Shown here: piece by piece, positions 8,207 through 57,392 of the stretch
Layout: each line of letters begins with the position of its first letter
Position numbering within the stretch: the stretch's first letter is position 1
NCBI GenBank assembly: GCA_963797555.1
Contig: CAWCPV010000007.1
Location: 448,001-512,000 of the forward strand
DNA: 64,000 nt
Reading direction: 5' to 3'
Source of the DNA: an uncultured Gammaproteobacteria bacterium
GTDB taxonomy: Bacteria > Pseudomonadota > Gammaproteobacteria > CAWCPV01
Notes under the pieces: model-generated
Databases searched by the model: none
Told to the model about the DNA's origin: nothing
What the model saw: the letters and a program-made list of their open reading frames with translations, nothing else
Translations under genes and position numbers: made by a program

Positions 8207-9319
8207 TCAGCAAAGGGGGCTGCAATCGTCCGGCGTGTTCTTCTTTACCGTCGAGCCGGTGAGGGTTACCGTACCGCCGGTGTTGAAGATCCCGCCGCCG
8301 TCGGCGGACGCCGTGTTCTTCGAGACGATCGAATCGGTGGCGGTCAATGTGGCGCCGACGTTCAAGATCCCACCGCCGAACAGGACAGCCGAGTTCTTCC
8401 ACACGATCGAGTCGTTGAGCGTCAGGGTGGTGGTGCGGATGATGCCGTCGACGGGGTCGGCATACTGGAGGTTGAGAATGCCGCCGCCGCCGCTGAAAGG
8501 CCCCGTGTTTTGCGACATGCTATTTTGCGACACGCTCGAGTTATTGAGGGTCAGCGTGCCGCCGAAGGAATTGGTGATACCGCCGGCGAACATGGACGCC
8601 GTGTTCTTCGACACGATCGAGTCGTCGAGGGTCAGCGTGCCGCCGGCGTTGACGATCCCACCACCCTCGAGGGACGCCGTGTTCTTCGACACGATCGAGT
8701 TGTCGAGGGTCACCGCGGGGAGAGGCGTGATAGGGTGGTTGTAGAAGTTGCAGTAGCTGCAAATGCCAGCGCCCAAGTATGCCGTGTTGTTCGACACGAT
8801 CGAGTTCTTGAGGCTCAGCGTGCCGTCGTTGTAAATGCCGCCGCCGAAGCAGAGGAGGGTACTTGTACCGCAATTGCCACTCTCGCTGGACGCCGTGTTG
8901 TTCGACACGTTCGAGTTCCTGAGGCTCAACGTGCCGTCGTTGTAGATGCCGCCCCCTAAGTCGCTGAAACCATGCTGCACCGTCAGGTTGGCCAGCGTGA
9001 CGGTAACGCCGGAGTCCACGCTGACGACGGTGCCGGCGCCTCCGCCGTCGAGGGTCGCCGAGGGGCTGCCTATGATGGTGAGGTCGCGATCGATGGTGAA
9101 GCGGCCGGTGCAGCTGCCTCTAACGCGGATCGTGTCGCCGGTAGCGGCAGCGTCGATCGCGTCCTGCAAGCTCTGCGCCTTATCGCAACGGACGGTCGTG
9201 GTGGCCGCCTGGGCGGGGGCTGCCGCGAGTGCTGGCAGGAGGATGCTGGCTCCCCACAGGGCCGCCAGCGAGCAGGCCGTCCGGCGGCCGGCTCCAAGGG
9301 CTGGAATGAGACGAGACAT
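8207..9319 (-). CDS. Secreted right-handed beta-helix / polymorphic-membrane-protein-like repeat protein
   Basis: Signal peptide (AAPAQA) and about 7 GG(G/A)IxN...TLTLxxSxVSxNxA repeats. GGAGG RBS. Confidence 0.85.
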   Translation of the reverse strand: MSRLIPALGAGRRTACSLAALWGASILLPALAAAPAQAATTTVRCDKAQSLQDAIDAAATGDTIRVRGSCTGRFTIDRDLTIIGSPSATLDGGGAGTVVSVDSGVTVTLANLTVQHGFSDLGGGIYNDGTLSLRNSNVSNNTASSESGNCGTSTLLCFGGGIYNDGTLSLKNSIVSNNTAYLGAGICSYCNFYNHPITPLPAVTLDNSIVSKNTASLEGGGIVNAGGTLTLDDSIVSKNTASMFAGGITNSFGGTLTLNNSSVSQNSMSQNTGPFSGGGGILNLQYADPVDGIIRTTTLTLNDSIVWKNSAVLFGGGILNVGATLTATDSIVSKNTASADGGGIFNTGGTVTLTGSTVKKNTPDDCSPLC

Positions 9320-37784: not shown

Positions 37785-39866
37785 TTATCCCCGGAAGATG
37801 TCTACTTTTGTCTCCAGGCACTTCCGCAGACTCAAATCCTGGGCGCCGATCTCGAAACGGCTGCCGGGCTTCTGATAGAAATCCAGGCCGCGCCCGATCT
37901 TGATGCTCCAACCGTTGTCGAGGCGAATCTCGCGATCGTGCAGGTTTGGATTGAGCTGTACGTCCAACACGACGTCCAGCTCCAGCAGGCTTTGCTTGAC
38001 CTCTTCCAGCTTCTCCTGGGCATCGGCCCGTTGCTTCTTGTCGTCGTAACCGGTGACCAACTTGATGTGTTTCACGGTTCCGGCCTTGACCACGGTCTCG
38101 CAGAGACGGAGGAAGTTCTGGATCTGGTGTTGCGCCCTGATGTAGGGGTCTTCGATGGTGACCTCCGTTGCGCCTCGCAGATACGGACCGATGATCGAGT
38201 CGTAGGTGTGGCCAGTGTCCCCATATAGGATGCTGAAGTGCTGCTCCTTCAGCTCCGGCGCCATGGGTTCGGTGCCCGGAAGAGCCACGTCTACCGCCGA
38301 GAGGACTGCCGGTGTGGCAGCGCGGTCATCGAGGTTTGCGGGAACGCCGACTGGGAGCTTGCGAGGTCGCAATTCCTCTCCGATCCGTCTTCGCGTGGGA
38401 TGCAGTGTCGCTGGCGCGTGCTCGGACTCCGGACAATAGACGACGACCTCCTCGCCGCTCGCCCCGAAGTAGGATAGGCCGATCTTCGCGAACTCGTCGT
38501 CCGGCTTGCGTTTGTTCATCTGCTCCTTGACCCGCCGACGGCACTCGACCGCGTACGCCACGTACTCCTCGAATTCTTGGTCCGATGGGGCGGCAGACGG
38601 ATGCAGGATCTTCAGGAAGGCGCACACCGTCTTCTTGATGGCCTTCTCATCACGCCCCTCCACCGCCTGCCCGAGCGCGATGCGCTTGTTCACCTCCTCG
38701 TAGCGGTTGGTGTGCATGAACAGGTAGTGGAACGCCTCGGCCAGGTAGTCCGTGATGAACCCGTAGTTCCTTGTCAGAAACTCGCTGCTGTTCTTCGGCA
38801 TCTCCCACCCGGGGAGATAGCAGGCGAAGCGGTCCATGACCGCGAGATCGAACTGCGGCGGCAGCGGCTGGAACAGGTCGTATTCGGTGGAGTTGACGAC
38901 CTGCTCCACCGACAGGTCGATGTTGCCGACGAAGGCCAGGCTCGCATCGGCGATGACCTCCACTCCGCGCGAGAAGCGCCCGTTGGCCATGAAGTCCTTC
39001 ATGATCTGGACGGTGTCCGGGTCCTTCACCTTGATGCCCGCGACTTCGTCGAAGGCCACCGTGTCCCAGAACCCGACCAGCCCCACCTTGCCGCGCGCGT
39101 TGTTGTAGAACAGGGTGGCCTTGGTCGCCTGGCCGCCGCTCACCAGCGTCGAATAGGGCGAGAACTCGCTGAAGAAGTACGACTTGCCGGTGCCGCGCGG
39201 CCCCAGCTCGATGAAATTGAAGTTGGCTTCGACCAGTGGGGCGAGCCGGGCAACGAAGTGCAGCTTGACGCGGTGCGACAGCTTGCCCGGCTCGAGGCCC
39301 ACCGAGCGCAGGACGGCGTCCAGCCACTCTTCGCGCGTGAAGGCGACGCGGCCTTCGGCGTAGCGGTCGAAATCGAAGCGGGTGAGCTGAATGGGGCGCA
39401 TGTCCTCGACGTAGAAGGCGTAGTCGTCCTCCTCGATGTCGTTGTGGGCGATGGTCACCTCCGCCCAGATGCCGCCTTCCAGCAGGCGGTCGTTGTCCTG
39501 ATAGAACTTCTGCCCGACGGCGATGCGTTGGGAATTGAAATTCTCCAGCGCCGCCCAGTGCCGCTTCTCCTTCTCGACGTAGCGCACATGCACCTTGTCG
39601 ATGAAGCGGTGACGCCCCTTGGTGGCCACCCTCGACTGCGCTGCGTTCGATTCGTCCGGGCGGACGTAGTTGTCCTGCAGGGTGGCGAGGACCGCCTCCA
39701 TGCCGGCGTCGATCTCGGCCGGGTCGTTGCTGGCGCAGAACTTGGCGAGCAGGAACTCGAGCACGAAGGTGGGGACATTGGTGCCCTTCTTGATACGGTG
39801 CAGCAGGTCCTTGCGGACCACCCTCCCGTCGAACACCTCGTTCAGTTTCCTGTCCAGCGCGTCCAT
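37785..39866 (-). CDS. brxL: BrxL-family AAA+ ATPase with C-terminal MIT_C/PLD-like domain and no Lon protease domain
   Basis: NVPTFVLEFLL, ELGPRGTGKS, VAFDEVA, GFITDYLAE, ECRRRVKEQ. C-terminus IEDPYIR..HQ and LHDREIRLDNGWSIKIGRGLD. Confidence 0.88.
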   Translation of the reverse strand: MDALDRKLNEVFDGRVVRKDLLHRIKKGTNVPTFVLEFLLAKFCASNDPAEIDAGMEAVLATLQDNYVRPDESNAAQSRVATKGRHRFIDKVHVRYVEKEKRHWAALENFNSQRIAVGQKFYQDNDRLLEGGIWAEVTIAHNDIEEDDYAFYVEDMRPIQLTRFDFDRYAEGRVAFTREEWLDAVLRSVGLEPGKLSHRVKLHFVARLAPLVEANFNFIELGPRGTGKSYFFSEFSPYSTLVSGGQATKATLFYNNARGKVGLVGFWDTVAFDEVAGIKVKDPDTVQIMKDFMANGRFSRGVEVIADASLAFVGNIDLSVEQVVNSTEYDLFQPLPPQFDLAVMDRFACYLPGWEMPKNSSEFLTRNYGFITDYLAEAFHYLFMHTNRYEEVNKRIALGQAVEGRDEKAIKKTVCAFLKILHPSAAPSDQEFEEYVAYAVECRRRVKEQMNKRKPDDEFAKIGLSYFGASGEEVVVYCPESEHAPATLHPTRRRIGEELRPRKLPVGVPANLDDRAATPAVLSAVDVALPGTEPMAPELKEQHFSILYGDTGHTYDSIIGPYLRGATEVTIEDPYIRAQHQIQNFLRLCETVVKAGTVKHIKLVTGYDDKKQRADAQEKLEEVKQSLLELDVVLDVQLNPNLHDREIRLDNGWSIKIGRGLDFYQKPGSRFEIGAQDLSLRKCLETKVDIFRG

Positions 39867-39912
39867 AGTCTCCCTATACCTACATGTCATTACACACAAA
39901 TCGACACCTCGC

Positions 39913-40011
39913 CGTCATTCCGGCATGGATTGCCGGAATCCAGCGACCAGGGACGGTCACCCCAATCACATCCCTGTGTTCTAGATTCCGCCATTCCCTG
40001 GCGGAATGACG
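39913..40011. repeat. CGTC-type REP/palindromic element between pglZ and brxL
   Basis: CGTCATTCCGGCATGGATTGCCGGAATCCAG ... CTAGATTCCGCCATTCCCTGGCGGAATGACG. Confidence 0.8.
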
Positions 40012-40032
40012 AGATGTGTGTAAGGAGATGCC

Positions 40033-42561
40033 CTACACCGTATAGTCGGTCTCCAGACTCAGGCTGCTGTAGGCCGTAAGAGTGGTGGGATTCAGCGCCT
40101 TGACGGTAAACTTGCCCTCGAAGTCCGCATCCATGCGCAGCGCGATTTGCTTGCGCGCCCCCGCGGCCAGGGTGATCGTCCGTGTCGCCGGGTTCACGTC
40201 CCCGCCGGGCCGCGGCTCGCCCACCACGTTGCCCTTAGGGTCCTGCGCTTCCAGCAGCACCTCGACGGCATCGCCTGCGCCCGCAAACAGGCTGTCGCTG
40301 TGCAGCTCGACCTCGATCACGGGCAGTCGGGTCGTGATACGCTTCGCGCCGCTCTTGTAGGAAAGCACCACAGTGTAGCGCCGCGCGTCCGGCTGTACCG
40401 GGGCCTCGAAGCGCACCCGCAGCACCGGTACCACGGCCTCGGGCAGGGAGATCCCGCCGTGGAAGTAGAGATAGCCCGCTCGATAGGGCGCCATGCTGCG
40501 GGGACCCGCCACTTGCGCGAAGGCACCGCGAATCCCGAGCTTCTCCGCGGAGACCACGAAGTTGTGCCCATCCGCGACCCCATCGCCCAGCATCAACCGA
40601 TCGTGCGCGGCGACCGGCCACCGCCCCCGGGGCTTGGTGCACACGTCGCCGGCTTCCGCCTGGGCGTTCAGGAAAAACCCGTGGTCGGTCCCGATGACGG
40701 CCTCCCGGAATCCCAGGCCCCGCAGCTTGTGCAGGGCGACTCGGATCAGCTTGAGCGTGCCTGGAACGAGGCTCAGCGTGCTTTCCGGATTGCTCTCGAG
40801 CTGACTGTCGATCTCGGTGCTGCGCAACACCAGCAGATCCACGGTGTCGGGCAGCTTGGCCTTGCCCCGCACGAAATCGCTCAGCGCCATCTCCGCGAAC
40901 CGGTCGCCGTAGCGCTTGCGCAGCACGCCCATGCGCTGGGAGACGTTATTGACGGGAATCCCGGCGAGCTTCAGCACCAGCGAGTCGCCCTCGCTCTCCA
41001 GGGAAAGGTCCGCGTGCGCCCCTGGGAGCAGACTGGCCATGCCGACCGGGGTCACCGTCGGCAGTTGGGCGCAGGCCGCCCGGAGCTCGACCGGACCGTC
41101 CTCGGCGACGAGCTTCTCCAGCGCCACGCCCAGCTCGTAGCGCAGCGCGTCCACCATCAAGTAGGCCAGCCGGTGGCCGCGCTGCTTCAGCCGCTCGCCG
41201 ACGAAGCGATCGAACACGTCCGCGTTGGCGAGACGCCCCGTCGGCGGCCAGCCGTCCGTCTCCAGGTGGCTCACGAAGGCGGCCTGGACCTTCTCCGCAA
41301 GGCGGCGGTAACGGCTGCGCGCCACCTGGATGACCTCGCCCATGAAACCCTGGGCGTCCAGGAAATCGCCGACCGCCTGCTCGAATTCACGCTGCAATCG
41401 GTCCGCCTCGCGCAGGCTTCCGATATAGAAATCCAGCAGGCTTTCCTGGCGCCGCCCGTGGTCCGGCAACTGGCGTTCGAAATCCTCGCAGGCCTCCATG
41501 AGATGCAGGGCTGCCCGGATCAGCGCCCATTGCACCTGGCTCTCGCCCTTGCCAATCCACACCGACCGAGCGTGGCGGCCGAGCAGGGCGCGGGTTCGAT
41601 CGGCATTGTCCCGCAGCAATGCGTCCATGGCCTGCCGCAGGAAGGTGCGCTCCTCGAAGGGGAAGGTGTCCTTCTGACCCAGGTCTTCAATCTCGGAGCA
41701 CACCTCGGGCAGGTTCATCTCGGCCTCGATAGCCTCCGCCCTCTCGACATAGCTCGCCCGCGTGCGCAGGTCGCTGCGCAGCCGCTCGCACAGGTCCTCG
41801 ACCAGCGGCCGCGCCTCCTCCGGTGCGCGCGGGACGCCCGCCAAGGCATCAGGTAGCACGCCGGGCAAGTCGAAGACGAATTCGCTGAACAGCAGGAAAC
41901 GCCAAAACTCGTCGGCCAATGGTCCCCAGCTCTTGGCGCGGGTCTTCAGTTCCATCTCCAGCGTCGCGCGCAGGAGATCGCGTGCCTCCTGCGACCAGCC
42001 GTCCGCGGCCTTTAGCGTCTTCGCTTGCTCCGGATTCGGCACCAGCAGCGCTGCGAGGATATCGCCTGCCGATTCGACCTTCAGCGTCGCACGCAACTGG
42101 GGCCAGCCCATGCCGCCGCCAATCGCATCCATCACCGCAAAGGCCGGGGAAGGGTTCTCCGCGAACACGCGGCGAACCTCGGTGGCGAAATCCGGCTTGG
42201 CCCGCAGACAAACGCTCAAAAACTCGTCCCCGTCATCCTCCGGGAACACCGCGCCGCACTCGGCGTAGAGCGCAAAGGGATCGGCCTGTTTCTGCTGCTC
42301 GCTGAGAGGCTTTCCGGCCGGCACGTAGATTAGCAGCCCCTCCACCGACGCTTTGGCCGCGCCCAGCGCGCGCAGTCCCCGCAGCGCCGCCTCCCGGCTC
42401 TCGATGCTGCTCTCCGAGGCATCGACCACATAGATGGCGTCGGAAGCCAGACCCAGACACAGCTCCCGATAGCGCCGTTCGGGGTCGTACACCACCATGC
42501 ACTGGGCCTTCTTCAGGCGGGGGAGCAGCACCTGCTCGCGGATGAACGCTGTTAATCTCAT
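40033..42561 (-). CDS. pglZ: BREX PglZ alkaline-phosphatase-fold protein
   Basis: VDALRYE, LPTVTPVGMASL, TDHGF and HGGISLPE motifs. BREX context. Confidence 0.9.
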   Translation of the reverse strand: MRLTAFIREQVLLPRLKKAQCMVVYDPERRYRELCLGLASDAIYVVDASESSIESREAALRGLRALGAAKASVEGLLIYVPAGKPLSEQQKQADPFALYAECGAVFPEDDGDEFLSVCLRAKPDFATEVRRVFAENPSPAFAVMDAIGGGMGWPQLRATLKVESAGDILAALLVPNPEQAKTLKAADGWSQEARDLLRATLEMELKTRAKSWGPLADEFWRFLLFSEFVFDLPGVLPDALAGVPRAPEEARPLVEDLCERLRSDLRTRASYVERAEAIEAEMNLPEVCSEIEDLGQKDTFPFEERTFLRQAMDALLRDNADRTRALLGRHARSVWIGKGESQVQWALIRAALHLMEACEDFERQLPDHGRRQESLLDFYIGSLREADRLQREFEQAVGDFLDAQGFMGEVIQVARSRYRRLAEKVQAAFVSHLETDGWPPTGRLANADVFDRFVGERLKQRGHRLAYLMVDALRYELGVALEKLVAEDGPVELRAACAQLPTVTPVGMASLLPGAHADLSLESEGDSLVLKLAGIPVNNVSQRMGVLRKRYGDRFAEMALSDFVRGKAKLPDTVDLLVLRSTEIDSQLESNPESTLSLVPGTLKLIRVALHKLRGLGFREAVIGTDHGFFLNAQAEAGDVCTKPRGRWPVAAHDRLMLGDGVADGHNFVVSAEKLGIRGAFAQVAGPRSMAPYRAGYLYFHGGISLPEAVVPVLRVRFEAPVQPDARRYTVVLSYKSGAKRITTRLPVIEVELHSDSLFAGAGDAVEVLLEAQDPKGNVVGEPRPGGDVNPATRTITLAAGARKQIALRMDADFEGKFTVKALNPTTLTAYSSLSLETDYTV

Positions 42562-42588
42562 GGTTCTACCGGAAAGCAGCGCTGGCCC

Positions 42589-43009
42589 TCACGGAGCCGC
42601 CTCGTCCCAAACGACCCGCACGTACCCGCTATCCGCGAGCGATGAGTCTTTGGTGAGCAACGGCACTCCCCATGCCCACGCCTCAGCCGCCACGAGCCGA
42701 TCGAAGATATCCGGAATCGCTGTGAGCTTCGTGCTCTCGATGACACGGGCGGCGGTTAGCGGAAGGAGCCGGTAGTTATCGCTGTCCTGCAACTGATCCA
42801 GCACTGGTATCAACCGGGTCAGGGTAAAACCCCGTAGGCGCTGCTTTTCCGCGACCATGCAGGCCTCGGCCACCACCACGGCCGGCACCAGCAAAGACTG
42901 CTTCCCCGCGCTCCACCTCCGCCAGCGCATGCGCCGCCCCGCGCCCGATGCGATCGGGTGCCATCAGATGCCATATCAGGACGTGGGTATCCGTAACGTA
43001 CCGATTCAC
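42589..43009 (-). CDS. PIN-domain (VapC-like) toxin, frameshift near 42905
   Basis: VTDTHVLIW | ...VAE...DIFDRLVAA...LLTKD. Confidence 0.82.
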
Positions 43010-43299
43010 CGCTTCGATTCTCCCGCGAGCTCGTCGATCAGCCTGTCGTGCCGGGCGTTGCGCTCCGCGCGCGACTCGTCCAGGGCCGATCGCACCGGGT
43101 CACCCTCGGGCATAGGCCCCCGTGTCAGCACTCCGCGTATGCTAGCAATCTGCTGGACGGGCGATTCAGACCCGAGAGGAGTCTCCGCTTCCGAGGATAA
43201 GACAATCACCTCCACCTCACCGACGGGAACCTCCGGGGGCAACTGAAGGGACAGGCGGTGATCCGCCTGGACGGTCGCTCGGTATCGGTAGGCTTGCAT
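43006..43299 (-). CDS. Putative antitoxin (AbrB-like beta N-terminus) paired with the PIN toxin
   Basis: 4-nt overlap with the toxin start. GAGGAGGAG RBS; PVGEVEVIVL motif. Confidence 0.65.
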   Translation of the reverse strand: MQAYRYRATVQADHRLSLQLPPEVPVGEVEVIVLSSEAETPLGSESPVQQIASIRGVLTRGPMPEGDPVRSALDESRAERNARHDRLIDELAGESKR

Positions 43300-43388
43300 G
43301 GATGTTCTCCTCCTCATTCAAGCACCACCAACGAATGCTGATGGAGCCACGTTTATCGACGCCGGACAGGTTGATCGGAACCGAGCCT

Positions 43389-43595
43389 TCACTCGCCACC
43401 CTCGAGGAGATTGAAGACTTCGTCTCGTCCTATCGAGGCCGTGCTCTCGGCCTCTTCTATGGCGCGAGCGAGCGCAGCGTCCTCGATGGCCTCATCGACG
43501 ATGTCGCGAAGCAGATCGCGTCGCTCTTCGAGGACTTCCACGATAGCCGCCTTCAGCAGCTCCTTGAGCCGGCGTTCATCAACAGGTGTTGCCAT
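43389..43595 (-). CDS. Small acidic antitoxin-like protein (RelE-partner type)
   Basis: LKELLKAAIVEVLEERRDLL...IEDAALARAIEE...RDEVF; 68 aa. Confidence 0.6.
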   Translation of the reverse strand: MATPVDERRLKELLKAAIVEVLEERRDLLRDIVDEAIEDAALARAIEEAESTASIGRDEVFNLLEGGE

Positions 43596-43627
43596 GCTGG
43601 CCTCACGGGTTCAAGAAATTAGCACCC

Positions 43628-43659
43628 GTAGGTTGGGCAAAAGCGCAGCGTTGCCCAAC
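43628..43659. repeat. GTAG-type REP hairpin
   Basis: GTAG-GTTGGGCAA-aagcgcagcg-TTGCCCAAC. Confidence 0.7.
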
Positions 43660-43754
43660 ACGAACGCCGATCGGTCCATCTAGCCGGCGATACATCCGGA
43701 CTGTCGTATGAATTCCGCGTCCCAAGGACCGGTCAACTCGACCCGTTCGCCGTC

Positions 43755-44162
43755 TCAGGACGACCCGGATGCATGGACCAGCCGGACGTTGTCCGTATAG
43801 CGTGCCAAAAGACTGTCGTCGGTCAACAGGAGCATGGGCTCCACACGGCTTTGCGCGACCAACAGCCGGTCGAACGGGTCCTTATGGATCGGCGGCAGCC
43901 GCGATACCAGCGCTGCGTGTTGCGCGGTGACGGGCAGCTCGGCAAAGCCGGTTTCCGGCATCACGGCCAGGATCTCGGCCGGATCGGCCTGGAAATCCTG
44001 CCGGCCCAACGCGCTCTTGATGGCAATCTCCCAGATATTGGCAGCGCTGAAGTAGATCTCGTTGTCGCCGTCCTCAAGCATGCGGCGCACCGCCTTGGGT
44101 ACCCGGTGGCTCGCACCCACGGCCCAGAGCAGCACGTGCGTATCGAGCAGGATGCGCATCAA
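43755..44162 (-). CDS. vapC: VapC-family PIN toxin
   Basis: LLDTHVLLW, SAANIWEIAIK, HKDPFDRLLVAQ, LLTDD. Confidence 0.92.
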   Translation of the reverse strand: MMRILLDTHVLLWAVGASHRVPKAVRRMLEDGDNEIYFSAANIWEIAIKSALGRQDFQADPAEILAVMPETGFAELPVTAQHAALVSRLPPIHKDPFDRLLVAQSRVEPMLLLTDDSLLARYTDNVRLVHASGSS

Positions 44163-44401
44163 CGCTCGCCTTCGAACTGAGCCAGGATCTCATCGGGCAG
44201 GGGTGCGTTGAAGTCATCGGGAATGCGCAGCTTGCCGTCCAGCAGCCCCAGCTTGCGGAGCCGCCGTGGCGATGCCAGCGGCACGAGCCGGGCAACCGGT
44301 TTGCCGGCCTTGGCGATGACGAACTCCTCACCCGCCTGGGCCTGTTCGACCAGCCGGGAAAGGTGCGTCTTGGCTTCGTGGATGTTTATCTGTTGTGCCA
44401 T
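44159..44401 (-). CDS. Phd/YefM-family antitoxin
   Basis: INIHEAKTHLSRLV...GEEFVIAKAGKPVARLVP. TGRACTAAG direct repeats upstream (44418-44436) could be the operator. Confidence 0.92.
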   Translation of the reverse strand: MAQQINIHEAKTHLSRLVEQAQAGEEFVIAKAGKPVARLVPLASPRRLRKLGLLDGKLRIPDDFNAPLPDEILAQFEGER

Positions 44402-44490
44402 GGCTGGCATCTCTGGATGGACTAAGGTGAACTAAGCTTATCATGTTGAAGGGCCTGCGCGGCCCGCGGCGATCATGCACCCTAGTCGCC

Positions 44491-47400
44491 CTAGTCGTCC
44501 CCGCCATCTTCCGCGACGGGCTTGCGCCCCCGTTTTTTCTTCGCGCTCTGCGGGGGCGCCTGGTAGAGGTCTTCGAGGTCGTGGGCGATGGCCAGTGACT
44601 TGTCGGTCTTGCATTTCTCGCGCACGCGGTCGGGCCAGAGGGTATAGGCCAGGTGCGCCCAATCGTAGTCGCCGCGATCCAGCTTCTCCCAGGTCTCCTT
44701 CAGCGTCTTCTGCCACTTGGGCAGGCGGAACAGCTTCCAGAGGGGCGCCGCCGTGATCTGGACGCCGTCGTTCAGGTTCGGCTTCCAGCGGGGCGCCCAG
44801 GCGAGCAGCTCGTCGCGGAAGGCCTGCAGCTCAATCTCGAAGTCCTGCAGCCCTTCCAGCTCCTTTTCATCGGCACGGGTGCGGGCGCTGCCTTTGGCCT
44901 GTAGCCGGCCTACCGCCTCGCTGACTTGACGGAGCTTCGGCTCCACGAAGTGCACGACGCAGGCATAGAGCGTTTGATCGGTGAGGCGGTGGTAGTAGAT
45001 CCAGAGCGTGTAACGGCCGGAGGCGGTGGAGAGCGGCCAGTAGATGGGGGCCTGGCGGCGGCTCTTGGAGTAGCGCTTCAGGTGGTCGGCGAAGAAACTG
45101 GCAGGCTTGCGGAAGTAGTCGCGCAAGGTGCGCACGCCCAGGATGTCGCACGCCTCGCGCTCGATGGCCTCCCAGCGGTCCTTCCAGATGATTTGCAGCA
45201 CCTGGTGGACACGGGCCTCAATGTCCAGCGGATGGCCCGGGTCATCCACCAGGATGCCGTCCCACGGGATCTCGATCGGATAGTTCCAGCGGCCTTCCTG
45301 CTTCAGCCTTGCCACGTCCTCCTTGGTGACGGGTAGCCCTTGCTCGTTCTGGAGCTGGCCGGGCGGACAAACCGGCAACGGCGCAAACGGGTCGGGCAAC
45401 TCCGGCGCCGGTTTCTCGCCCGTGGCGAAACGGATGTCCCAGCGGCCAAAGGCGGTGCCGAGGGCATAGGATGGCGCAAATTCGAAAGCGGGTCGTCCCG
45501 ACGCTGCCAGCGACCGATGAAATCTTGATTCACTCGCAAGCTTCTCAAGATCGCAATTGAACCTCAAAGCCAACGATTCGAACTCGGCGTGTATGACGTG
45601 AGAGCGTTTCATGAGCTGCCGACTTACGCCTTCGACGGGTGCCTCCTTTTCATCTCCGTCCAAAGTCGGGAGATTGGGACTGCCCCAAAAGCCCTCCGGT
45701 ATCTGCCCGCCGCCGCAGTGGTATGGGTGCCGCGCAAAATCTGCCTCAAGTAATCCGTCATCAGCCTCGGAAAACCCGAAAATATGTCTCCATATTTTGT
45801 CAACCATCCAATCCGACCGAAGGACCTCTAGCGCGTCTGCAAGAAACGACTTGGCGTTAGATATCGCGAAATCTTTGAGAGACTGACGTGTCGCTCCGAA
45901 TCGAAGACCCTGAAAGGTTGGAGACAGCTCGTCGACAGCCAACTGATGAGTTTGAACACACCGAAACCGCCGATCGATACTCTGTTTGATGTGTTCGGAC
46001 TGAGCGGAGTTCAGGCGGTCGAGAAGGCATGGAAGTCTCTTCATGATCCCCGTCGTATAATTCCGGGCGGCACTACCTCGAACGGCAGAATCTCCGGACC
46101 CGACGCAGAATTCAACTAAGGCCCCGACCGGACGACTATTGAGATACGAAAGTAGCGGCACAAGGTGTTGGCCGGCGAGAGGAATAATGCCAGGGCCTCC
46201 CGGACTGAAGACGCTTCCCGCAGGTAATGCTCGAAACGAAAGAAAGCTAGTCGTTCGCTGGGTATAAGTAATCCCCGGAACTCCGTAAATCTCGGAATCG
46301 GTCGTCCTTCGAGCAACAGGTAGCAACTTGAAGTCAACTACCAACTCGTAGTTCCCAGCGGTAGGTTGATAGTCGCCGCCTTTTGCATAGCGCCGCCATC
46401 GGCCGTCCAACTCGTTAGGTGGAACTTCGACGTGGAGGCGCAAGAATCGATCGTCTTCACCTGTCTCAAGCCCCTTCGAAACTTTCGCAAAAGCCTCGAC
46501 CGGCCGTTCCGCGAAAAGGTCAATCCAATGCTTTGGCGCCCAATAAGCAATGCGGTGGCTGGGAATCTGGCCCCAGCAATTTGGCACGGCAAAGACATCG
46601 CGTTTAGGCGTGGACTGGACAATCGCAGCAGCCAAAGCAGTCGCTTTATCGCTCGCCGAAAGCAGGCGAAAGAATGTTCCGAGTCGTCCTTCACGAGAGA
46701 TAACGAAAGCGGCAGGTTCAACCACCGCATCCAAAACCCCGTATCCCAAATCAGCGACGAGAGCGAAGTTGCAAGACGACAGGATCGCTTCCCGCCACTC
46801 GTCGAGCTGATCGAGGAACATCAGAAGGCGTGTCGCAAGCACACCGATACGGCCGCCGACTGATAGCTGCTGAATGCTGCGCGTTAAGAATAGCGACGCA
46901 ATTTCGCGACTAGATCCTGCAGGTGCCGGAATCTCCTGTTGGTAAATGGCTCTAGTCGCTTCGCCAAACGGCGGATTCATGAGGACCACGTCATATCGTT
47001 TGCGGCACAGGTCGATGAAGGCAAAGCCACGGGCGGCATCATCGGCAAACAGGCGGCGCTGGTAGCCGTCGCCGTGCTCCGCCCGTCCAGCGTAGGTCTG
47101 GAGGGCGGCGTAGATGCGTTCCTCGGCCTTTTCCCAGAAGGTTTCGTCGGTGATGCCGGTTACATCCAACCCGAGTTGCTGTTGCACGGGCGGAGCGGTG
47201 TCGTCGGCGAAGAGACGGCCTTGTTCGCGCTTAGGGCCGACGAGCCATTTCTGCTTCGCCTCGGCCACGGCGCCGGCGATTTCCTCCTCGATCTTGAGCA
47301 AGGAGCCGGCTTCGCCCGCGAGCTTCATGGCCTCGAATACCCGCCGGACGAGTTGCCCGAGAAGCTTTCGCTCGGGCGTGGCGGAGAGGTGCGCCGTGAC

Positions 47401-48757
47401 GAACTCCTCCAAGAACGCTTCCTCGCCGGGCATGGGCTCGGCGCAGACGATGTTCGAACGGCGGATGCGGAAGCGCTCGCCGGGCTTGAGGCCCTGCTGC
47501 TGCCAGGTGCGCTGGGCGCGCAGCCAGAGAGACAGCCCGGCGATCTGCACCGCGCGGGGGTCGATGTCGATGCCGTGGATGTTGCGCTCGATGATGAGGC
47601 GGGGAACATCCCGCAGCAGCTCGCCCTTGTCTGCGTACGTCTCCCGTAGCGGCTTCAAGCCTTCGCCCCGCGCATCTCCTCCCGTGGGCGAAGGGAGCAC
47701 ATTGAGATCCCATGCCTCCTCGTAGATGCACTCGAACAGGTCGAAGGCATAGAGCCCGAAGTGCATGGACCCACAGGCGGGGTCCAGCATCTTGATCTCG
47801 CGCGGATCCTTCAATGCCCGGAAGGGGATATATACCGGCTGCTGCAGCAGTTCCTCCTGGCTGAGGTTGCCCTGATCGCTCGGCGGCTCGGGCGCCACTT
47901 CTCCGGGCGCCAGGAAGACTTCGCGCGGGCGACGCACCAGATAGCCGCAGCGTTCCTTCAGCGCCGTCCTGCCCTGGGCCATCTCGTACCAGATGCGGCC
48001 CAGGGTGTTGTCGGTGAGGAACTCCACCACGTAGCGCGGCGTGAAGAACTGGTTGCGCACGGCCAGCTCGCGGCTGTTGCGCGGCGCGGCCGATTCGTCG
48101 CGCATCTTTTTCCGCTCTTCCTTGGAGTTGAAGTACTGGTAGATCCAGCCGATGGTCTCGTCCTCCGCCCACAGCGGTGCGATGTCGGGGGCGTTGATGA
48201 GCTGGAGCGCCTCCAGCAGGGCTGGCTCGCGCGGGAAGAGCCGCCCTTGGGGCGAGTAGCGGTCGAACAGCACCTTGAGGTCGAGCGCCAGTTCGTCGAA
48301 GACGCTGAAGAGGTAGCAGCGGTAGGCATCGCCCATCTCCCCGAGGCCGCTGCCCGCCAGCCTGGCGTACAACTGAAAGCCCTTGGAGTTGTGGCCGCTC
48401 GCCACCGACTCGATCAGCAGGCCGCGCGCCTCGGCCATGCGCAGGCGCAGCGAGGCGGTTGAGCACGGTGAAGGCCTGCTCGCGCACGATGCGCTCCAGC
48501 CCGCTGCTGCGGTTGCCGCCCGTGGCGGCTGGTCGGCGCAGGTAGTGCGCCAGCGTCTCGCGCAGGATGCGGGCCGTTTCGCGCCGGGCATCATCGAGGT
48601 GGCGCAGGCTTGTCCAGGTCGCGCCACCTGCGCCGGAGATGCGGGTCCAGGCCGTACTCGTTCTGCAGTTGGCGGGTGAACTCCTCGGTCAGCAGCGCGC
48701 GCGCGCCTCGCTGACGAAGCGCTGCAGGCGGTTGCGGGTGGGTTGATCGAAGGCCAT
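44491..48757 (-). CDS. pglX: BREX PglX adenine methyltransferase (frameshifts in the first 300 nt or so)
   Basis: Start MAFDQPTRNRL overlaps the brxC stop. ETIGWIYQYF, NQFFTPRYVV, DPACGSMHF, MNPPF, PIYWPL, DDGV-like NDGVQI. Confidence 0.9.
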
Positions 48758-51700
48758 TAGCCATCGTCCTCGATGACTGAAGCGTCACCTCGACGTCTCG
48801 AGTAGATGGGCCAGATCTCGCTTTGAGCTCTTGCAGCTGCCGAATCAGGTCTTCGAATCTGCGTCGGGTCGCTGATCGCTGACAGTGGACGTCGCACGGT
48901 AAGCTTCGTACGTCGCGCACGGAATCGCCGATCCTTCGCGCGCCCGCTCCTCCATCCGCCGGCGCGCGCGCTCCTGGCCCTGACGGCCGATCGACGTCTT
49001 GAGATCGCTGACCGTCGGAGATGATCTCGTAGTCGCGGTTGAGCAGCTGCTTGAGGCCGGCGAGGTCCTGCGTCGGCCTCCATCGCCAGCGCTGTCCAGA
49101 CGCGGCCAACGCGTTCGCGCTGCTCTTCCTGGGTGAGTCTCTGCCATTCGGGCAGGCGCTGCAGGTCCTCTGGCGCCTCCTTGAGGCGCAGCTTCTGCTG
49201 CTCGGTCGAGCTGCGGTGACCGCGTTGCTGACCCGGCGCCTTGATGTGCGGTGAGCGGGGTGCTGAGGTCGGCGGCGTGGCTGGAAGAAGTCGTCCTTGC
49301 CGAGGCGCTCGGCGAGCTGCTGCAAGCTCTCGGCGAGGTCGCGGCGCAGCTCCCCGGGGATGCCGGTCGCGGGCAGCGCACTCGATGTCGCGGCGGTGGC
49401 GCCTGCAGATCCCGCGATGGTGGTCTCCAGGCCGTTGCTTGAGCGCTCGGTTCGACCTCGCCGGCCCACTTCAGGCTCTGGTACAGCGCCGACTCCTCGC
49501 CGCCCAGGCGCTGCGGGGCATCGGAGGCGTCGGTGAACAGCACGTCGGCGATGTCCTGGTTCAGTGTGCGGATGCGTTCCGCCGCCGGCCAGCCTGTAGC
49601 GCCGAGAGCTTTTCCGCGAGCGGGGCGTACTGCGTGCTGGAAACGCGGGAAGCGCTTGGCGGCGGCCTTGCTGATCTCCTCCTCCAGCGGGATCACCGTG
49701 TCGCCGATCAGCTCGGTGAGGCGTTCGGCGGCGCGCGCCAAGGTCTCGATGGAGGGCCGCTCGTCGCGCAAGCGCTACGCCCGCGGCTGGCAAAGCTTCT
49801 GTTGGTCTTCAGCGCATCGATCGCCTGCTGGCCGGTTGACCGTGACCTCGCGGCCCGAGACCTTGAGCTTGATCTCGCCCGCCACCAGCATCGCGGCGAG
49901 GAGGTAGCGGATGCGTGTCCGGCGACCAGCCGAACGGCGCGCTCGGTGAAGTGGTCGAGCAGGCGCTTGCCTTCGACGGTGCCGTTGCGCTCGATGTAGT
50001 CGCGGATGCTGACGAGGGCCTTGTGGTCGGTCTTGATGCGCGGCCGTGCCGCCGGCTGATCTGCACCAGCCCCAGCGGATCCAGGGCGCTGGTGATGGCC
50101 GCGGGATTGCCCGACGCGCAGGAACTTCTCGGCCAAGGCCGTCTCCGCCCGCACGGGCGCCTCGGCGTAGCGGTCGAAGACCTGCTCGGCGACATCCGCG
50201 AGATGCTTTCTTGCAAGGCCTCGAGCACGTCTGGTCGAGGGCTCTCGACGGCGGTGGTCTGGCCGCGGAAGAGGAACGAGCCCTGCGCGCAGCTGCCTGC
50301 TTGAGCAGTTGCTGCAAGTTCGCCGCGAGCTTGGCGGCCCGCTCGCGTCTGGCTGGCGCAGTACTCCTTGACCTCCTGGTCGGGATCGTTGCGGTGCAGC
50401 TCGGCGATGCGCTGGCAGCGGTAGATCTCGGCCGACCAGATCGTCGGCTTCGGCGGCTGCGCGGCCGAGCAGGTAGATCACGTTTTGCCGTGCGCTCGCT
50501 GGCGCGACTCGTCGAGCAGCCGGGTGCGCTGGCGGTCTCGTAGTCGGTCGGATTGGCGAACTCGACGACGGTCTGGATCGTGCTCGCGCTCGCCGGCGAG
50601 GCTGGTGATGAGTGCTGCCCGACTGCGCCTTGAGCCCCGTGGTGACGGCCAGCGTGCCGTGCAGGCGTGGCGGGCGGCAGCGGGTCGAAAGCGTCGCGGA
50701 GCGCCTCGTTGAGGATGCGCCGCGTCTCGACGGTGCGCAGCGGTATCTGCGCCGCGCTCCTGCTCGATGTCGTTCAGCTTCTCGCTGAAGAAGCAGCAGG
50801 TTGCCGTCCTTCTCGCCGAGCGGCACCAGCGGATCGTTCAGCATCTCCTCGACGCGCCTTGCGCACCTCGTCCAGGCGCGAGGGCGCGGTCGACGGCGGG
50901 TGCATGAGGCTGGCGAGATTCTGCACCGTGACCGGCATATTGCCGAGGATCTGCAGCACGGCGACGGTCTTCGCCACCTCCTGGTGCAGGGCGGAGTCGT
51001 GGAAAGCGAATGCAGGACCTTGCCGACCGCCTGATGGATCGACGGAAAGGCGCGGCGGATGTCCTTCTCCAGCGCGTCGTACAGGGTCACCGTGGTGGCC
51101 AGCCAGCCCGACCGGCTGATCCGCGACCGGCGTGCGGCCGTCGCTGCCCTCGACCAGAATGTCCTGGATCACCTTGATGGCGGAGCGCAGGCCGATGCCG
51201 CCGGTGGATTTGGCCAGGGCACCCAGCAGGTGGAGCAGGATATCGAAGTGCGCCGGCAGGAAAGGGTAGAGGTTGATGAAGGTCTCGCGGTTGAAATCCG
51301 CGTCGTAGTAGCTTGGCGTCGTGCAGCTTGGTGTTGTGCCGCAGGGCCTGCCCGAGCTGCATCGAACAGCTCGCCCGAGCGTCTGCTCGCCGGCTGGCGA
51401 CTTGCCAAGCAGCCGGCGGTAGCAGATCTCCTTGATGTCGCTCGACTCCAGGTCGACCTGGATGGGGAAGCGGTCCTTGAGCTTGAAGAGCTCCGGCGAA
51501 TTGAAGGCCGCGCGCGGGTCGTCCTCGGTCAGCGTCTGCTGCGCGGTGCCGATGATCCAGACCTTGCCGTCGCCCATGCTGCTTGAGGTTCTTGGCCAGG
51601 CCGTCGAGGTTGAGGATCGAGGTCTGGCGCGCGAGCCGACGTACTGGCCCACCTCGTCGATGATGAAGAGGATATACTGCTTGCCCGATGCTTCGCGGAC

Positions 51701-52460
51701 GATGTCGATCATCTCCTGCACGCGCTCGTTCTCGAACCGGACGAAATCGCTGGTGCCGGTGGAGAACGACGTGGGCGTCTGTGAACAGCGCCGGGTACAT
51801 CTCGTGGGCGATCTCCGGCAGCAGACTGTCGACCACCAGCGGATCGTTCTGAACGTCGCTCCAGGTCAGCCCGGCTCGTGCCTGCGATCAGCGCGCGTGA
51901 AACTCGTCATAGCGGCCGTCCTTCTCCAGCCGCCGCTCCAGCGCCGCCACCTTCAGGTTGCGCGAATAGCCGGCCCACTGCAGCACCTTGTAATAGAGGA
52001 CCGTGGAGACATCCTCCATGCGTCGCCCCGGCGAGCATCTCGCTGGCGAGGTCCAGCATGACGACGGCGGCCGGGTAGCGCGTGCGCCACCGTGGTCGAG
52101 CAAGGCCTTGGTCTGGGGCTGTGTGCAGGCGGTCCTGCAGGTGCTTAAGGAAGGGCACGCCGTCGACCGTGCACGCGCTCGTCCAAGGCGAAGCCGAGAT
52201 ACTTGGTGAACGAGCTTTTGCCCGGATCCGTAGAAGCCGGAGACCCAGACGCCGATCTCGTTCTCGCCGCCCGGCTCCATGGCCAGCTTGCATCTTGTCC
52301 AGCAGCTTGCTCGAACTGCTCCTCGATGCTGTCGGTGACGATGTACTCGCGTGATCTCGGCCTTGAGGCGCTCTTCCTGCGAGGCACTGTAGGTGATCAC
52401 CTTCTCGATGGTGCGGTCGATGCCCTTGCTCGGGTCGAACAGCGTGCGGATCTGGTTCAT
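48757..52460 (-). CDS. brxC: BREX BrxC/PglY P-loop ATPase, broken by many single-base indels
   Basis: IDRTIEKVI, VWVSGFYGSG(K)S, FIIDEVGQY, KLKDRFP, YPFLP, PFGW fragments in shifting frames. Confidence 0.85.
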
Positions 52461-52488
52461 GCGCGATCAGCCTAGTTCTGACGGGTTA

Positions 52489-53064
52489 TCAGCCGCCCAC
52501 ATGGACGGAGCGGTAATTGCCGTCTCGGGATAGAAGCCGAGGAACTTCAACCGCGTCTTGCCGGCTCCGGATGCCCGGATAAAGAAAGACGGTCGGCACG
52601 TGGAACTTGCCCTGAAGCTGCCCCTCGATGGAACCGATCCGCAGGTAAGGGTGGAGCGCCTCCAGGTCGGTGACCAGCAGCAAAGCGTTACTGGCCCCTT
52701 CGAGGGAGGTCAGAGAAGCTTCCAGGCGGCGCTGCAGCGCGCCGTTGCTGTCAGCGCATTCGCCAGGGACTGGTTGGTCTTGGTCCAATTCTGCGGCTCC
52801 CGGCGGTCGGCGGTGAGCCACAGCGCACGGCGCGGATCGTTTTGCAGGACGGCCTCGATGTGCTTCGGCTATCGAGAACGTGGTCACCTCCCAGCCCTCG
52901 TTGCGCAGCCGTGCAATCCAGGCCGGCGTCTGGCGCTTGACCTCGAGGATCTGCGAGGGGTGGAACACCAGGTAGTAGATAGGCTCGAAGCTGGCGTGGC
53001 CGAGTTCCCGGCCATGGCGGATGCGCTCCCGCAGCTCGTCGAAGTCAGCCTTGAGCGAGGACAT
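52489..53064 (-). CDS. brxB: BREX BrxB (DUF1788), local indels
   Basis: EALHPYLRIG..E...VPTVFLYPG...GNYRSVHVGG. Lies between brxA and brxC. Confidence 0.8.
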   Translation of the reverse strand: MSSLKADFDELRERIRHGRELGHASFEPIYYLVFHPSQILEVKRQTPAWIARLRNEGWEVTTFSIAEAHRGRPAKRSAPCAVAHRRPPGAAELDQDQPVPGECADSNGALQRRLEASLTSLEGASNALLLVTDLEALHPYLRIGSIEGQLQGKFHVPTVFLYPGIRSRQDAVEVPRLLSRDGNYRSVHVGG

Positions 53065-53837
53065 CGCAGAGCGCCTTCATGTCTCGATGTTTCCAGCTTA
53101 TTCGGACCACGTCGCCCGCCGCCTGGACGATGAACAGTCCCGTCAGCGACAGGCGTTTCAGCTCATCCAGCGCATCGTCGCGGCCGAGCCCCGAACAGTC
53201 CCCAATCTTGGTGACTCATTACCGAGTTGTCGCCCAGGCCCGAGAAGTGCAGGTCGTGCGCCAGGTAGGCCGCGACCCTGGGCGACATACGGAAGGCGGC
53301 GATACGCCGGGCCGTCTTTTGCCCGTTTTCGAGCAGGCCGTAATCGGCGCAGCAGCCGGTCAGATAACCGGCCACATTCTGGATCGTCCTGTCGGACCAG
53401 CGTGTTGCAGTCTTGCCGTCGTCGACGGCGCGCTCCACGAACGCTCGCGCATGGTCGTTCGATATCTCGCCGGCGCCTGCCGCGTACCGCTCCCAGTAGA
53501 CCTGCCGGATGAAGTCCCCGAGGATCGGATTCGCCCGGCTGGTGAAAAGCATGAAGAGCTGATTGATCTCCGGCGGCGCAAGGCGAACCACCAGGCGCTT
53601 CAGGTGTCCGGCGGGTGCACCGTCTCTGACAAGGTAGCGGGGAGCGAAGCATTCAGTGACGATGTTCCGCAGCCTTCGGTCGGCAATGTTCGGGAATCGA
53701 CCGGACTCAAGCGCCGCTTGATGGATCTGCGGTGCTCTCATTCCGGGCTCCCATAGCTCCAACAGTGCCTTGGTTTCATCGACGAGTCCGAGGCCGGCCC
53801 CAAGCCTGATAGTATATGGCGCCCTCTTGGTTACCAT
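53045..53837 (-). CDS. brxA: BREX BrxA (DUF1819), indels near 3' end
   Basis: GAGLGLVDET, RRLRN..ECFAPRY, WSDRTI, ADYGLL. Operon position. Confidence 0.8.
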
Positions 53838-54340
53838 CAGGCGACGAAGTAGGGGTACGTCCTCGTGCCCGCCTCGAAGGCTGCCAAATAGCTGCCGGCG
53901 ATGGCCTCCTGACTGCGCTCAGCACCGAGGTCGTCCGCCCCGCCAATCGAGATCGGACCCTCCGCTTTCGGCCTGTTGCCGCCCGACATCGTGGCCAACA
54001 CTGCCAGTGCTGTGTCTTTGCTTTGCAAGCTCGAGAGCAGATTGTCGTCCCCCAAGGACTCCAGCAGCAGGTTGTGCAGATCCTGCTCGGTTTCTTCGGG
54101 CAGTCGGAACAAGTGGAAGACATTGCCGATGCCGATGTGTTCATCGTGCAGGCGCCTGGCCGCTTCGACAATCCCATGATACCGCGCCAGGCGAACCGTC
54201 TTGGGAAAGACGGGCTCCGAGAACAGTTTGCTCGCCGGGGTGAAAAAGGAGGTGGACCACCACCCGAACTGGGCCCGCTCGCCCAGGTACCCCACAATCA
54301 GCCTGAGCCGCACGTATATCGATAGACGTGGTTCCGCCAT
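53837..54340 (-). CDS. brxE: BrxE-family protein
   Basis: RLIVGYLGE..QFGWW...AARRLHDE...HLFRLPEETE...PYF. First gene of the operon, coupled to brxA. Confidence 0.72.
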   Translation of the reverse strand: MAEPRLSIYVRLRLIVGYLGERAQFGWWSTSFFTPASKLFSEPVFPKTVRLARYHGIVEAARRLHDEHIGIGNVFHLFRLPEETEQDLHNLLLESLGDDNLLSSLQSKDTALAVLATMSGGNRPKAEGPISIGGADDLGAERSQEAIAGSYLAAFEAGTRTYPYFVA

Positions 54341-55119
54341 CGTCAGCAACTCCCTTACTTGTGCGGGACCCAGCGGCCCGCTCGGCCACTGCGCCTGCCC
54401 GAGCGCTGCTTCGGTATGGCGCCGCTTCTGCTTGCACTAACCCCGCAAAGTGCGCTTGCTCGCGTCCGCCGGTGAGCCTGGCATCACCCCAAAACGAGAC
54501 ATCGGCTCCGACGCCTGCGCACTTGCTCGCTGCGCCGTTCCCCGCAAGCATAAGACGCGGCTGGAAGTGCCACGGCGGAGGCGTCGCCGGCTTCCGGAAA
54601 CCCTCCGCGGCGCGGAGCAGGCCGCCCAAGGCCCCGTGCATTCACGAATTGTGGAGAAAGTATCGACGCACCTCAACTATAAATGTGGCATATCTCCGCT
54701 TGAGGGTCCGCGCGACGACTTGGAGATCAACCGCACCTGCCCACTTCCTCATCGTCTTCTTCTAACGTGCGCTCCTCGATCGCGCCGGATCGGGGCGAGG
54801 GTGACCCCGGCAACCGTGTGCATCGCAGCATCGACCGGTTGGCCGGGCCAAGCCGAAGTGCCGAGAGGCGCATGCGGCCACGGTCCCGGGGTCGATACTC
54901 GGATTTTTTGGGAGTCATTGTCTTGTTTCGAATCTTGTTGATTCGATCTGGCTTGGAGTGTCTCGCGGGGTTCGCACTGGCGCGCCGAGGGCGCCAAATT
55001 CCGGAGACAGCGGGGAGCGGCGAACTATCCTGTTCAACCGCTGCCGAGCCATCCTTAGGTCCTTTTGCTCATCGTCCCGGCCTTACTGGGGCAGTGGTAC
55101 CACCTGACTCGGTGCTCCT

Positions 55120-55326
55120 GTATTGTATGCCTTCCAGTTGCATATATCCCATCCCTTGGTGGAAGGCTCAAACTGGGAGCCGGATGGTGTAACCCTCCAA
55201 GTCCGGTTCTGCGAGGAGCCGGGGACGAATCGATGCATGGCCGAGATCACGTGGCACCGCGGGGAAACCAGGCGGCAAACAGAGAACACAAACTTCTACC
55301 GTCGGCAAGGACCCGGCTTACTCTCC
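55120..55326 (+). ncRNA. Group II intron 3' remnant (end of IEP, domain V, long domain VI)
   Basis: ...ISHP tail, then GGGAGCCGGATGGTGTAACCCTCCAAGTCCGGTTCTG (AGC triad domain V) and GAGCCGGG...CCCGGCTTACTC with a bulged A. Confidence 0.78.
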
Positions 55327-55751
55327 GGGCACTTTTTTGACGAAAACGCTATGCCGAGTTCATGCGCGCAGCGATCCCCGAGGAGGAGCAGACGCTGATA
55401 CGCGAAGCGCTGCAGCTTGGACGATTACGGGCAGCGCCCGGCCCGGAATCCACTCGGCATGCAGGGGCAGGGCCGGGCGACCTGTCCCTTGCCGCCGGCG
55501 TCCCCATCCGCCTCGTCGGCTGCGAGGCGGGGACCGGGCTGAGCGCCGCCGGGAACAGCGGTCATGGCGCTCTGTACCGGCCCTCAGCGGGAACCTGTTC
55601 GTGACGGTTTTGTGATCGGGCTTGACTTGCCGCGCCTGCTACATCACTCTGCGCCTGTGCGCCGCCGGGCGCAGCTTACCGACGCGGTTCGTATCCCTTC
55701 GCTGCTGTGTCACGTTACAAAACAACCCACCAAACCGAGGAGGCAGCACGC

Positions 55752-57392
<1,641 letters not shown>

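Follow-up and report, generated by a model that had tools for sequence, protein, structure and literature searches.

The window analyzed here, a 64,000-nt stretch of the genome of an uncultured Gammaproteobacteria bacterium (contig CAWCPV010000007.1), carries on its minus strand, between positions 37785 and 54340, a row of bacteriophage exclusion (BREX) genes: a brxE-family gene, brxA, brxB, brxC and pglX, then two toxin-antitoxin pairs, and finally pglZ and brxL. The open reading frames (ORFs) of the window were named by scans with the hidden Markov models of PADLOC, Pfam and NCBIfam, and all the BREX genes that a first-pass annotation had named in this interval were recovered. The BREX genes, and the region of the operon that is damaged in the deposited sequence, are the following:

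53837-54340, minus strand: brxE-family gene, 167 amino acids from the ATG at 54340 (NF033447, 160.3 bits)
53051-53837, minus strand: brxA; the deposited ORF covers 53163-53837 (224 amino acids), and the homology continues in another frame to about 53051
52489-53064, minus strand: brxB, an open ORF of 191 amino acids with two out-of-frame stretches (PADLOC PDLC02465, 257 bits)
about 48594-52466, minus strand: brxC, without an open frame as deposited; its pieces match PADLOC PDLC02483
48442-53189, strand not applicable: indel-dense stretch of 4.75 kb with about 47 frame-breaking events
44491-48757, minus strand: pglX, encoding an N6-methyladenine methyltransferase; the deposited ORF covers 44491-48627, and the homology begins at 48757
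40033-42561, minus strand: pglZ, 842 amino acids, intact (PADLOC PDLC02561, 1302 bits, full length)
37785-39899, minus strand: brxL with an HKD/PLD tail, 704 amino acids, intact (PADLOC PDLC02508, 954 bits; TIGR02688, 477 bits, cut-off 329)

Type 1 BREX, for which E. coli HS, Salmonella and Acinetobacter provide the model systems, has the gene order brxA-brxB-brxC-pglX-pglZ-brxL, and the window has the same six core genes in the same order. BrxA matched PADLOC PDLC02445 (319 bits) and the Pfam BrxA model (81 bits). PglX matched PADLOC PDLC02527 (1349 bits) and passed the BREX-1 methyltransferase model NF033452 (596 bits, cut-off 500), its score with the BREX-6 methyltransferase model being 324 bits (cut-off 900), and it keeps the methyltransferase motifs I (DPACGS, residue 282) and IV (NPPF, residue 551). 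BrxL passed TIGR02688. With respect to membership in type 1, brxA, brxB, pglX, pglZ and brxL stand together in one operon; an intact brxC, which encodes a P-loop ATPase of about 1200 amino acids, is missing from the deposited sequence, probably through an assembly fault. The window differs from type 1 in the BrxE-family gene ahead of brxA and in the end of BrxL, which is PLD/HKD-like instead of Lon-like.

In type 6 the order is brxE-brxA-brxB-brxC-pglX-pglZ-brxD-brxHI (Goldfarb 2015, as summarised in PMC12839542), and the main text of the latter paper (Nucleic Acids Research, 2026) places types 5 and 6 inside type 1. The window resembles type 6 in that a BrxE-like gene stands first, as the first-pass annotation had proposed, and in that PglZ obtains its best NCBIfam score, a sub-threshold one, with the type 6 model. 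It differs in that its BrxE fails the type 6 equivalog, and in that pglZ is followed by brxL and then by a Fer2/FAD oxidoreductase gene, with neither brxD nor brxHI. The absence of brxD, brxHI and a WYL regulator gene (brxR) from the surroundings of the operon, also noted in the first pass, was borne out by ORF and flank scans: the neighbours are the oxidoreductase gene and a sulfatase gene, and no WYL regulator was found in 54350-55706, in the ORF 54141-54641 or in the flanking genes. The interval 54350-55706 holds no ORF with coding signal, and the ORF 54141-54641 has no NCBIfam match.

The first gene of the operon is a plain member of the BrxE family. Its product matched NF033447 over the full length (model positions 5-168 of 169) and four times above the cut-off of 40 bits, and it scored 29.6 bits with the type 6 equivalog NF033448, which has a cut-off of 80; the PADLOC BrxE model recognized it at E=0.0022 only. 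Hence, of the view of brxE as a mark of type 6, the presence of a BrxE-family gene stood and the assignment to type 6 did not. The ATG at 54340 is preceded by GGGAG (the longest ORF begins at a TTG at 54349), and the stop codon of brxE overlaps the start codon of brxA by a single base (TGATG). An identical 167-aa protein is present in a public protein collection, where the match to PF26412 is precomputed, and related proteins are named 'BrxE family protein' in NCBI and UniRef. A profile search retrieved 1385 cluster representatives at E<=1e-3, 855 at E<=1e-10 and 332 at E<=1e-30, nearly all of them free-standing proteins of 160-180 amino acids. In an alignment of 54 members, G23, E24, W31, L80 and P166 are invariant, R16, W30, H68, D69, H79, R82, L83, P84 and E88 are nearly so, and the motifs LGE..Q..WW, HDE.IG, YHLFRLPE and a C-terminal FPYF can be recognized.

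We then surveyed how common the order from brxE to brxL is, in the loci of 80 PglX relatives, the best among the 313 confirmed on contigs of a one-genome-per-species collection, taking 10 kb on each side and placing the other genes by tblastn and with a BrxE profile. A BrxE ORF lay just upstream of brxA, on the same strand, in 72 of the 80 loci, and in all 68 loci with a BrxA match and at least 560 nt of upstream sequence; beyond those 68 the sequence ends too early, and one locus (L024) is rearranged. The distance from the brxE stop to the start of the brxA ORF was between -89 and +25 nt in 65/66 loci, with an exact 4-nt overlap in 23. At the other end, 53 loci extended far enough past pglZ, and in 52 of them BrxL came next; in the exception, a BrxE-led operon of Thalassobacillus devorans (L063, 16400-19124), pglZ is the last gene and the arsenic-resistance genes arsR-arsB-arsC take the place of brxL. 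Of the 49 loci that extended far enough in both directions, 48 carried brxE as well as brxL, so that the order is the usual one among PglX relatives and does not represent a rare hybrid, the first-pass annotation having taken it for a hybrid architecture. The hosts belong to more than 10 phyla, among them Acidobacteriota, Thermodesulfobacteriota, Pseudomonadota, Planctomycetota, Chloroflexota, Cyanobacteriota, Bacteroidota, Bacillota, Actinomycetota, Spirochaetota and Verrucomicrobiota. When NF033447 was run again on five of these genomes, all five matched (144-160 bits), and four more BrxE proteins gave 99-156 bits, all staying below the type 6 cut-off. Across 400 other genomes sampled evenly from the phylum of the window, the BrxL ATPase was found in 19 and a BrxE-family protein above the cut-off in none. 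The BrxE-led, brxL-ending lineage is widespread, yet a minority.

The BrxL of the window contains the Pfam domains BrxL_N (PF20442, 149 bits) and BrxL_ATPase (PF13337, 403 bits), with a Walker A motif GPRGTGKS at residue 233, and in place of the Lon-like domain its residues 563-703 match the PLD-like domain MIT_C (PF16565, 177 bits), with HDREIRLD at 654-661. A BrxL-HKD variant with an HRD motif has been described in 1030 of 2913 type 1 taxa (PMC12839542). In that variant the Lon-like tail is swapped for an HKD-type nuclease domain with arginine for lysine, which is also what is observed in the window (H654-D-R...D661), so that by its domains and its H-x-R...D motif the BrxL of the window belongs to the published variant, and the nuclease is presumed from the sequence. 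The main text of the same paper names no BrxE in such operons; it names BrxE once, as 'exclusively in Type-6' of the 2015 scheme. The passages of two other papers in which BrxE is named do no more than list it. We found no literature text on BrxE in operons of the BrxL type, and the supplements of PMC12839542 may list it. Among the BrxL ORFs of the relatives, 42/54 have an HKD/PLD tail, with H-D-R-x4-D in 39 of the 42. The other 12, which also come from BrxE-led loci, lack the tail, so that BrxE and the HKD tail are not bound to occur together.

The combination of brxE with brxL might have arisen by recombination of the brxE end of a type 6 operon with the brxL end of a type 1 operon, or it might represent a rare undescribed subtype. 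In favor of such an origin, BrxE marks type 6 in the 2015 scheme, a view repeated in PMC12839542, the PglZ of the window scores higher with the type 6 model than with the type 1 models, and no BrxE was found in any of the 19 BrxL-bearing genomes of the phylum sample. Yet the BrxE of the window fits a separate curated family, which has a public name and 855 representatives at E<=1e-10, the full gene order is shared by nearly all of the related loci across the phyla listed above, and both ends of the operon co-diverge. Across these loci, the identities to the BrxE, BrxA, BrxB, BrxC, PglZ and BrxL of the window co-vary (Spearman 0.40-0.87; 0.55 for BrxE/BrxL, 0.62 for BrxE/PglZ and 0.86 for BrxL/PglZ). 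PglX is the exception (-0.01 to 0.18), and its departure from the pattern would be expected of the specificity subunit. A PglZ tree of 41 rows was computed with IQ-TREE (LG+G4, short search); it is unrooted and has long branches. Its rows were the window, 21 HKD-type loci hand-picked from 42, all 8 loci of the sub-branch without the HKD tail, 2 loci like a second BrxE-led locus of the same genome, and 9 BrxE-less loci from the phylum sample; type 6 rows were left out, since the type 6 BrxE model NF033448 was over its cut-off in none of the same 400 genomes. A branch separates the 32 BrxE-bearing rows from the 9 BrxE-less type 1 rows (support of 89 in the Shimodaira-Hasegawa-like approximate likelihood ratio test, SH-aLRT). 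The HKD clade has a support of 100 and contains the window and, nearest to it, Nitrosovibrio, Novosphingobium, Paracoccaceae, Acidobacteriota and Bacteroidota loci. In addition, the PglZ and BrxC of the window fall in PADLOC subfamilies other than those of the sampled BrxE-less loci. The co-variation and the PglZ tree therefore indicate a coherent lineage and not a recent splice, and we regard a hybrid or a rare undescribed subtype as extremely improbable. Thus, where the first-pass annotation had proposed a distinct subtype or a recombinant, the lineage of its own stood and the recombinant did not.

As deposited, the operon is not a chain of coupled open frames from brxE to pglX, in contrast to what had been claimed in the first pass. 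The gene brxC is split into at least four staggered ORFs, and its pieces match, in different frames, positions 4-188, 207-293, 528-883 and 993-1196 of PDLC02483. We aligned the DNA with a custom frameshift-aware dynamic programme to a profile of 60 full-length BrxC proteins from related loci. The best path covered profile positions 5-1161 with 39 frameshifts (26 of +1, 13 of +2 and no deletions) plus a TGA at 51888. The number of frameshifts depended on the penalty (39 at 12 bits, 27 at 20 and 14 at 30), insertions only being found throughout, and the frame-corrected path scored 1528 bits vs 594 when frameshifts were forbidden. The control alignments of three BrxC genes, divergent but intact, needed no frameshift, and that of a fourth one, a truncated input, needed two. 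The same test detected one frameshift (+1) in brxA, near 53189 (profile of 67 relatives, median length 264 amino acids), four in brxB, as two compensating pairs near 52860/52747 and 52560/52522, and three in the first 105 codons of pglX (48702, 48635 and 48442), the remaining 3.9 kb of which are clean; brxE (profile of 64 relatives), pglZ and brxL had none. The events thus form one continuous stretch that crosses gene borders. Decay of brxC alone was rejected as a cause, as the patch extends into brxA, brxB and pglX. The inserted bases of brxC are mainly G or C and lie mainly outside homopolymer runs, so that phase variation at homopolymer tracts was also rejected.

A whole-genome scan for switches of the GC-rich codon phase counted 16 per 2 kb in the patch, among the highest values of the genome, against the usual 3-4. 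An equal density was reached by three patches on contig C4 (575001-578000, 236001-239000 and 453001-456000), in which staggered pieces match an AcrB-type transporter, Cas1, hydantoinase A/B and the N-terminal part of CTP synthase; these patches have the appearance of local errors in the assembly consensus. The completeness of the genome is 84.6% despite only 20 contigs. We also aligned short-read contigs from three marsh metagenome runs to the operon. Outside the patch (brxL, brxE and brxA) the pieces were 99-100% identical to the window and gap-free. Of ten pieces in or near the patch, nine agreed exactly with the prediction, lacking 3, 6, 4, 6, 1, 1, 0, 0 and 0 bases relative to the window, and the tenth lacked 9 bases, where 8 were predicted. 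Over the brxA event at 53189, a 99% identical contig is one base shorter than the window.

The same damage could be that of a truly dead BREX operon: in the organism itself, brxC and brxB would be destroyed along with the ends of brxA and pglX, and neither methylation nor defence would work. Such a state would agree with the lack of an open brxC, with the split found in a second PIN-domain gene of the operon and in the neighbouring sulfatase gene, with the fragmented look of the three further BrxL loci, and with the divergence of about 10% of most insertion-free contig pieces, which may come from another strain. Natural decay, however, proceeds by deletions, substitutions and stops, unlike the 39 insertions, no deletion and single stop of brxC, the corrected reading of which scores like a healthy member. 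The ends of the patch are sharp and blind to gene limits, with 3.9 kb of pglX, pglZ, brxL and brxE left clean, patches of the same type strike apparent metabolic and transport genes (hydantoinase, AcrB-type), and the extra base of brxA is missing from the 99% identical contig. We therefore consider a dead operon unlikely. The patch is most likely a badly polished stretch of the metagenome assembly and not the state of the genes in the cell, because it consists of insertions only, with almost no stops and with the protein signal intact, because similar patches are found in unrelated genes elsewhere in the genome, and because independent metagenome contigs lack the extra bases.

Four BrxL loci in total were found in the 5.3-Mb genome. 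One of the other three is a second BrxE-led BREX locus, with other PADLOC subfamilies (L003, C3:512500-532400): BrxA belongs to PDLC02454, BrxC, intact with 1177 amino acids, to PDLC02476, and PglZ to PDLC02559; a PDC-S70 gene lies between brxC and pglX, and brxB, pglX, pglZ and brxL appear truncated or split. The remaining two are BREX-like loci that contain BrxL and lack BrxE (L099, C4:665001-685000, and L100, C16:93001-113000), in which several genes look fragmented.

We conclude, with a probability of about 0.8, that the window carries a type 1 BREX operon of a lineage with a BrxE-family gene before brxA and an HKD/PLD-tailed BrxL, the unreadable middle of which is most likely an assembly artefact. 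Several observations weigh against this conclusion. PglZ reaches no NCBIfam cut-off, its best scores being 175 bits with the BREX-6 PglZ model (cut-off 400) and then 70 bits with BREX-1 type A, and the label 'type 1' hence rests on gene content, PglX and BrxL. The support of the branch that unites the BrxE-bearing PglZ rows is not strong, and the tree is a quick one. With respect to the artefact, most metagenome pieces within brxC are about 90% identical to the window and thus represent a close relative and not the source strain, the event at 53189 is the sole one under a 99% identical piece, and the fragmentation of all four BrxL loci could also mean a real decay of the defence loci. Finally, we know of no experiment on any BrxE-led operon, and the functional steps are carried over from BrxE-less systems.

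By analogy with type 1 BREX, for which the steps are established, PglX with BrxB, BrxC and PglZ would N6-methylate the adenines of a short asymmetric motif in the host DNA, and unmethylated incoming phage DNA would be barred from replicating. BrxL, a DNA-loading ring ATPase, would act at the restriction step, carrying its own presumed nuclease, and BrxA would be a small DNA-binding helper. BrxE is a conserved 167-aa alpha/beta protein made with BrxA, in which invariant residues, polar and aromatic, form a cluster, and our guess is that it might be a subunit that regulates or assembles the methylation/recognition complex.

A bolder proposal makes BrxE a functional seventh subunit and the mark of a single old branch of BrxE-bearing BREX operons, from which type 6 derived by swapping brxL for brxD and brxHI, and holds that BrxE is a free-standing copy of a helical N-terminal module of the PglX/HsdM type that tunes the timing of PglX methylation. 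This would be suggested by the retention and translational coupling of BrxE in 68/68 loci, by the grouping of the BrxE-bearing PglZ rows in the tree, and by the structural comparisons. The AlphaFold model of BrxE is alpha/beta and confident (predicted local distance difference test, pLDDT, 94.9; predicted template modelling score, pTM, 0.90), and in a wider structural search its best match was the N-terminal part of Salmonella PglX (8c45_A, residues 74-391; Z 6.5, root mean square deviation 4.0, 145 residues aligned, a Z too low for a reliable helical match), followed by N-terminal regions of HsdM (Z about 4). The module part is weakened by this Z, which is under the meaningful level for helical matches, and by the probability of 0.5% that hhalign gave for BrxE and the PglX N-terminus of this clade, which does not support homology. 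A Foldseek search of the model against the PDB found no match at E<=0.001, a sequence-profile search of solved structures found a chance-level match only (E 0.39), and a search for BrxE look-alikes in a protein atlas gave no usable match. A prediction of the BrxE-BrxA complex, with a Blastocatellia relative as the first row, scored 0.00, telling neither way. We hold this proposal to be improbable.

The first-pass annotation had not mentioned the genes that separate pglX from pglZ, over 1.9 kb. They are a Phd/YefM antitoxin gene paired with a PIN toxin gene, an ORF for a RelB-like antitoxin, one small ORF and the second PIN gene:

44159-44410, minus strand: Phd/YefM antitoxin (PF02604, 44.1 bits)
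43755-44162, minus strand: PIN-domain (VapC-like) toxin (PF01850, 46.9 bits), with a 4-base overlap with the antitoxin gene
43389-43595, minus strand: RelB-like antitoxin ORF (PF25734, 62.1 bits)
43006-43317, minus strand: small ORF ahead of the second PIN gene, a possible antitoxin by position and coding signal, without a Pfam match
42589-43009, minus strand: second PIN gene, split by a frameshift into the ORFs 42776-43009 and 42589-42930

The lower ORF of the second PIN gene matches PF01850 positions 21-115, and the upper one starts with a PIN-like N-terminus. Among the related loci, the gap between pglX and pglZ exceeds 1 kb in 25/62, with a maximum of 6.6 kb, and therefore the toxin-antitoxin genes of the window occupy a recurrent insertion site. 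The two pairs would thus be cargo in a known insertion hot spot, and PIN and other nucleases are described in PMC12839542 as recruited into BREX loci.

The spacer of 133 nt between pglZ and brxL (39900-40032) contains two GC-rich inverted repeats, which resemble hairpins of the repetitive extragenic palindromic (REP) type. Upstream of the operon, the sulfatase gene (55707-57392) is split into two ORFs that match Pfam Sulfatase positions 1-176 and then 262-300. Between this gene and the operon lies one further feature:

55145-55328, plus strand: dispersed repeat, like the 3' end (domains V-VI) of a group II intron

This repeat matches RF00029 with 30.8 bits (E=0.0009), under the gathering score of 40, and has copies on contigs C3, C9, C17, C16 and C14 of the same genome; the depth of the metagenome contigs climbs sharply across 54929-55500. 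Elsewhere in the window, ARAGORN called a tRNA at 9086-9161 (plus strand, anticodon CTA, labelled Pyl), within the minus-strand ORF 8207-9319, and this call may be false.

The operon of the window is an ordinary member of a widespread, database-annotated BREX lineage. As a poorly described system, which is how it had been singled out in the first pass, it stands only in part: the BrxE family is named in NCBI and UniRef and the HKD-type BrxL is published, but the role of BrxE is undescribed. For the genome itself, the assembly has kilobase patches of insertion errors that are able to mimic pseudogenes, and claims of gene decay in it need the reads. For the family, the six-type BREX scheme misleads, in that BrxE is no marker of type 6 and leads hundreds of BrxL-type operons. 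To our knowledge, no BREX model system that has been studied has BrxE, and, BrxE-led operons being numerous, the role of this protein is an easily tested question.

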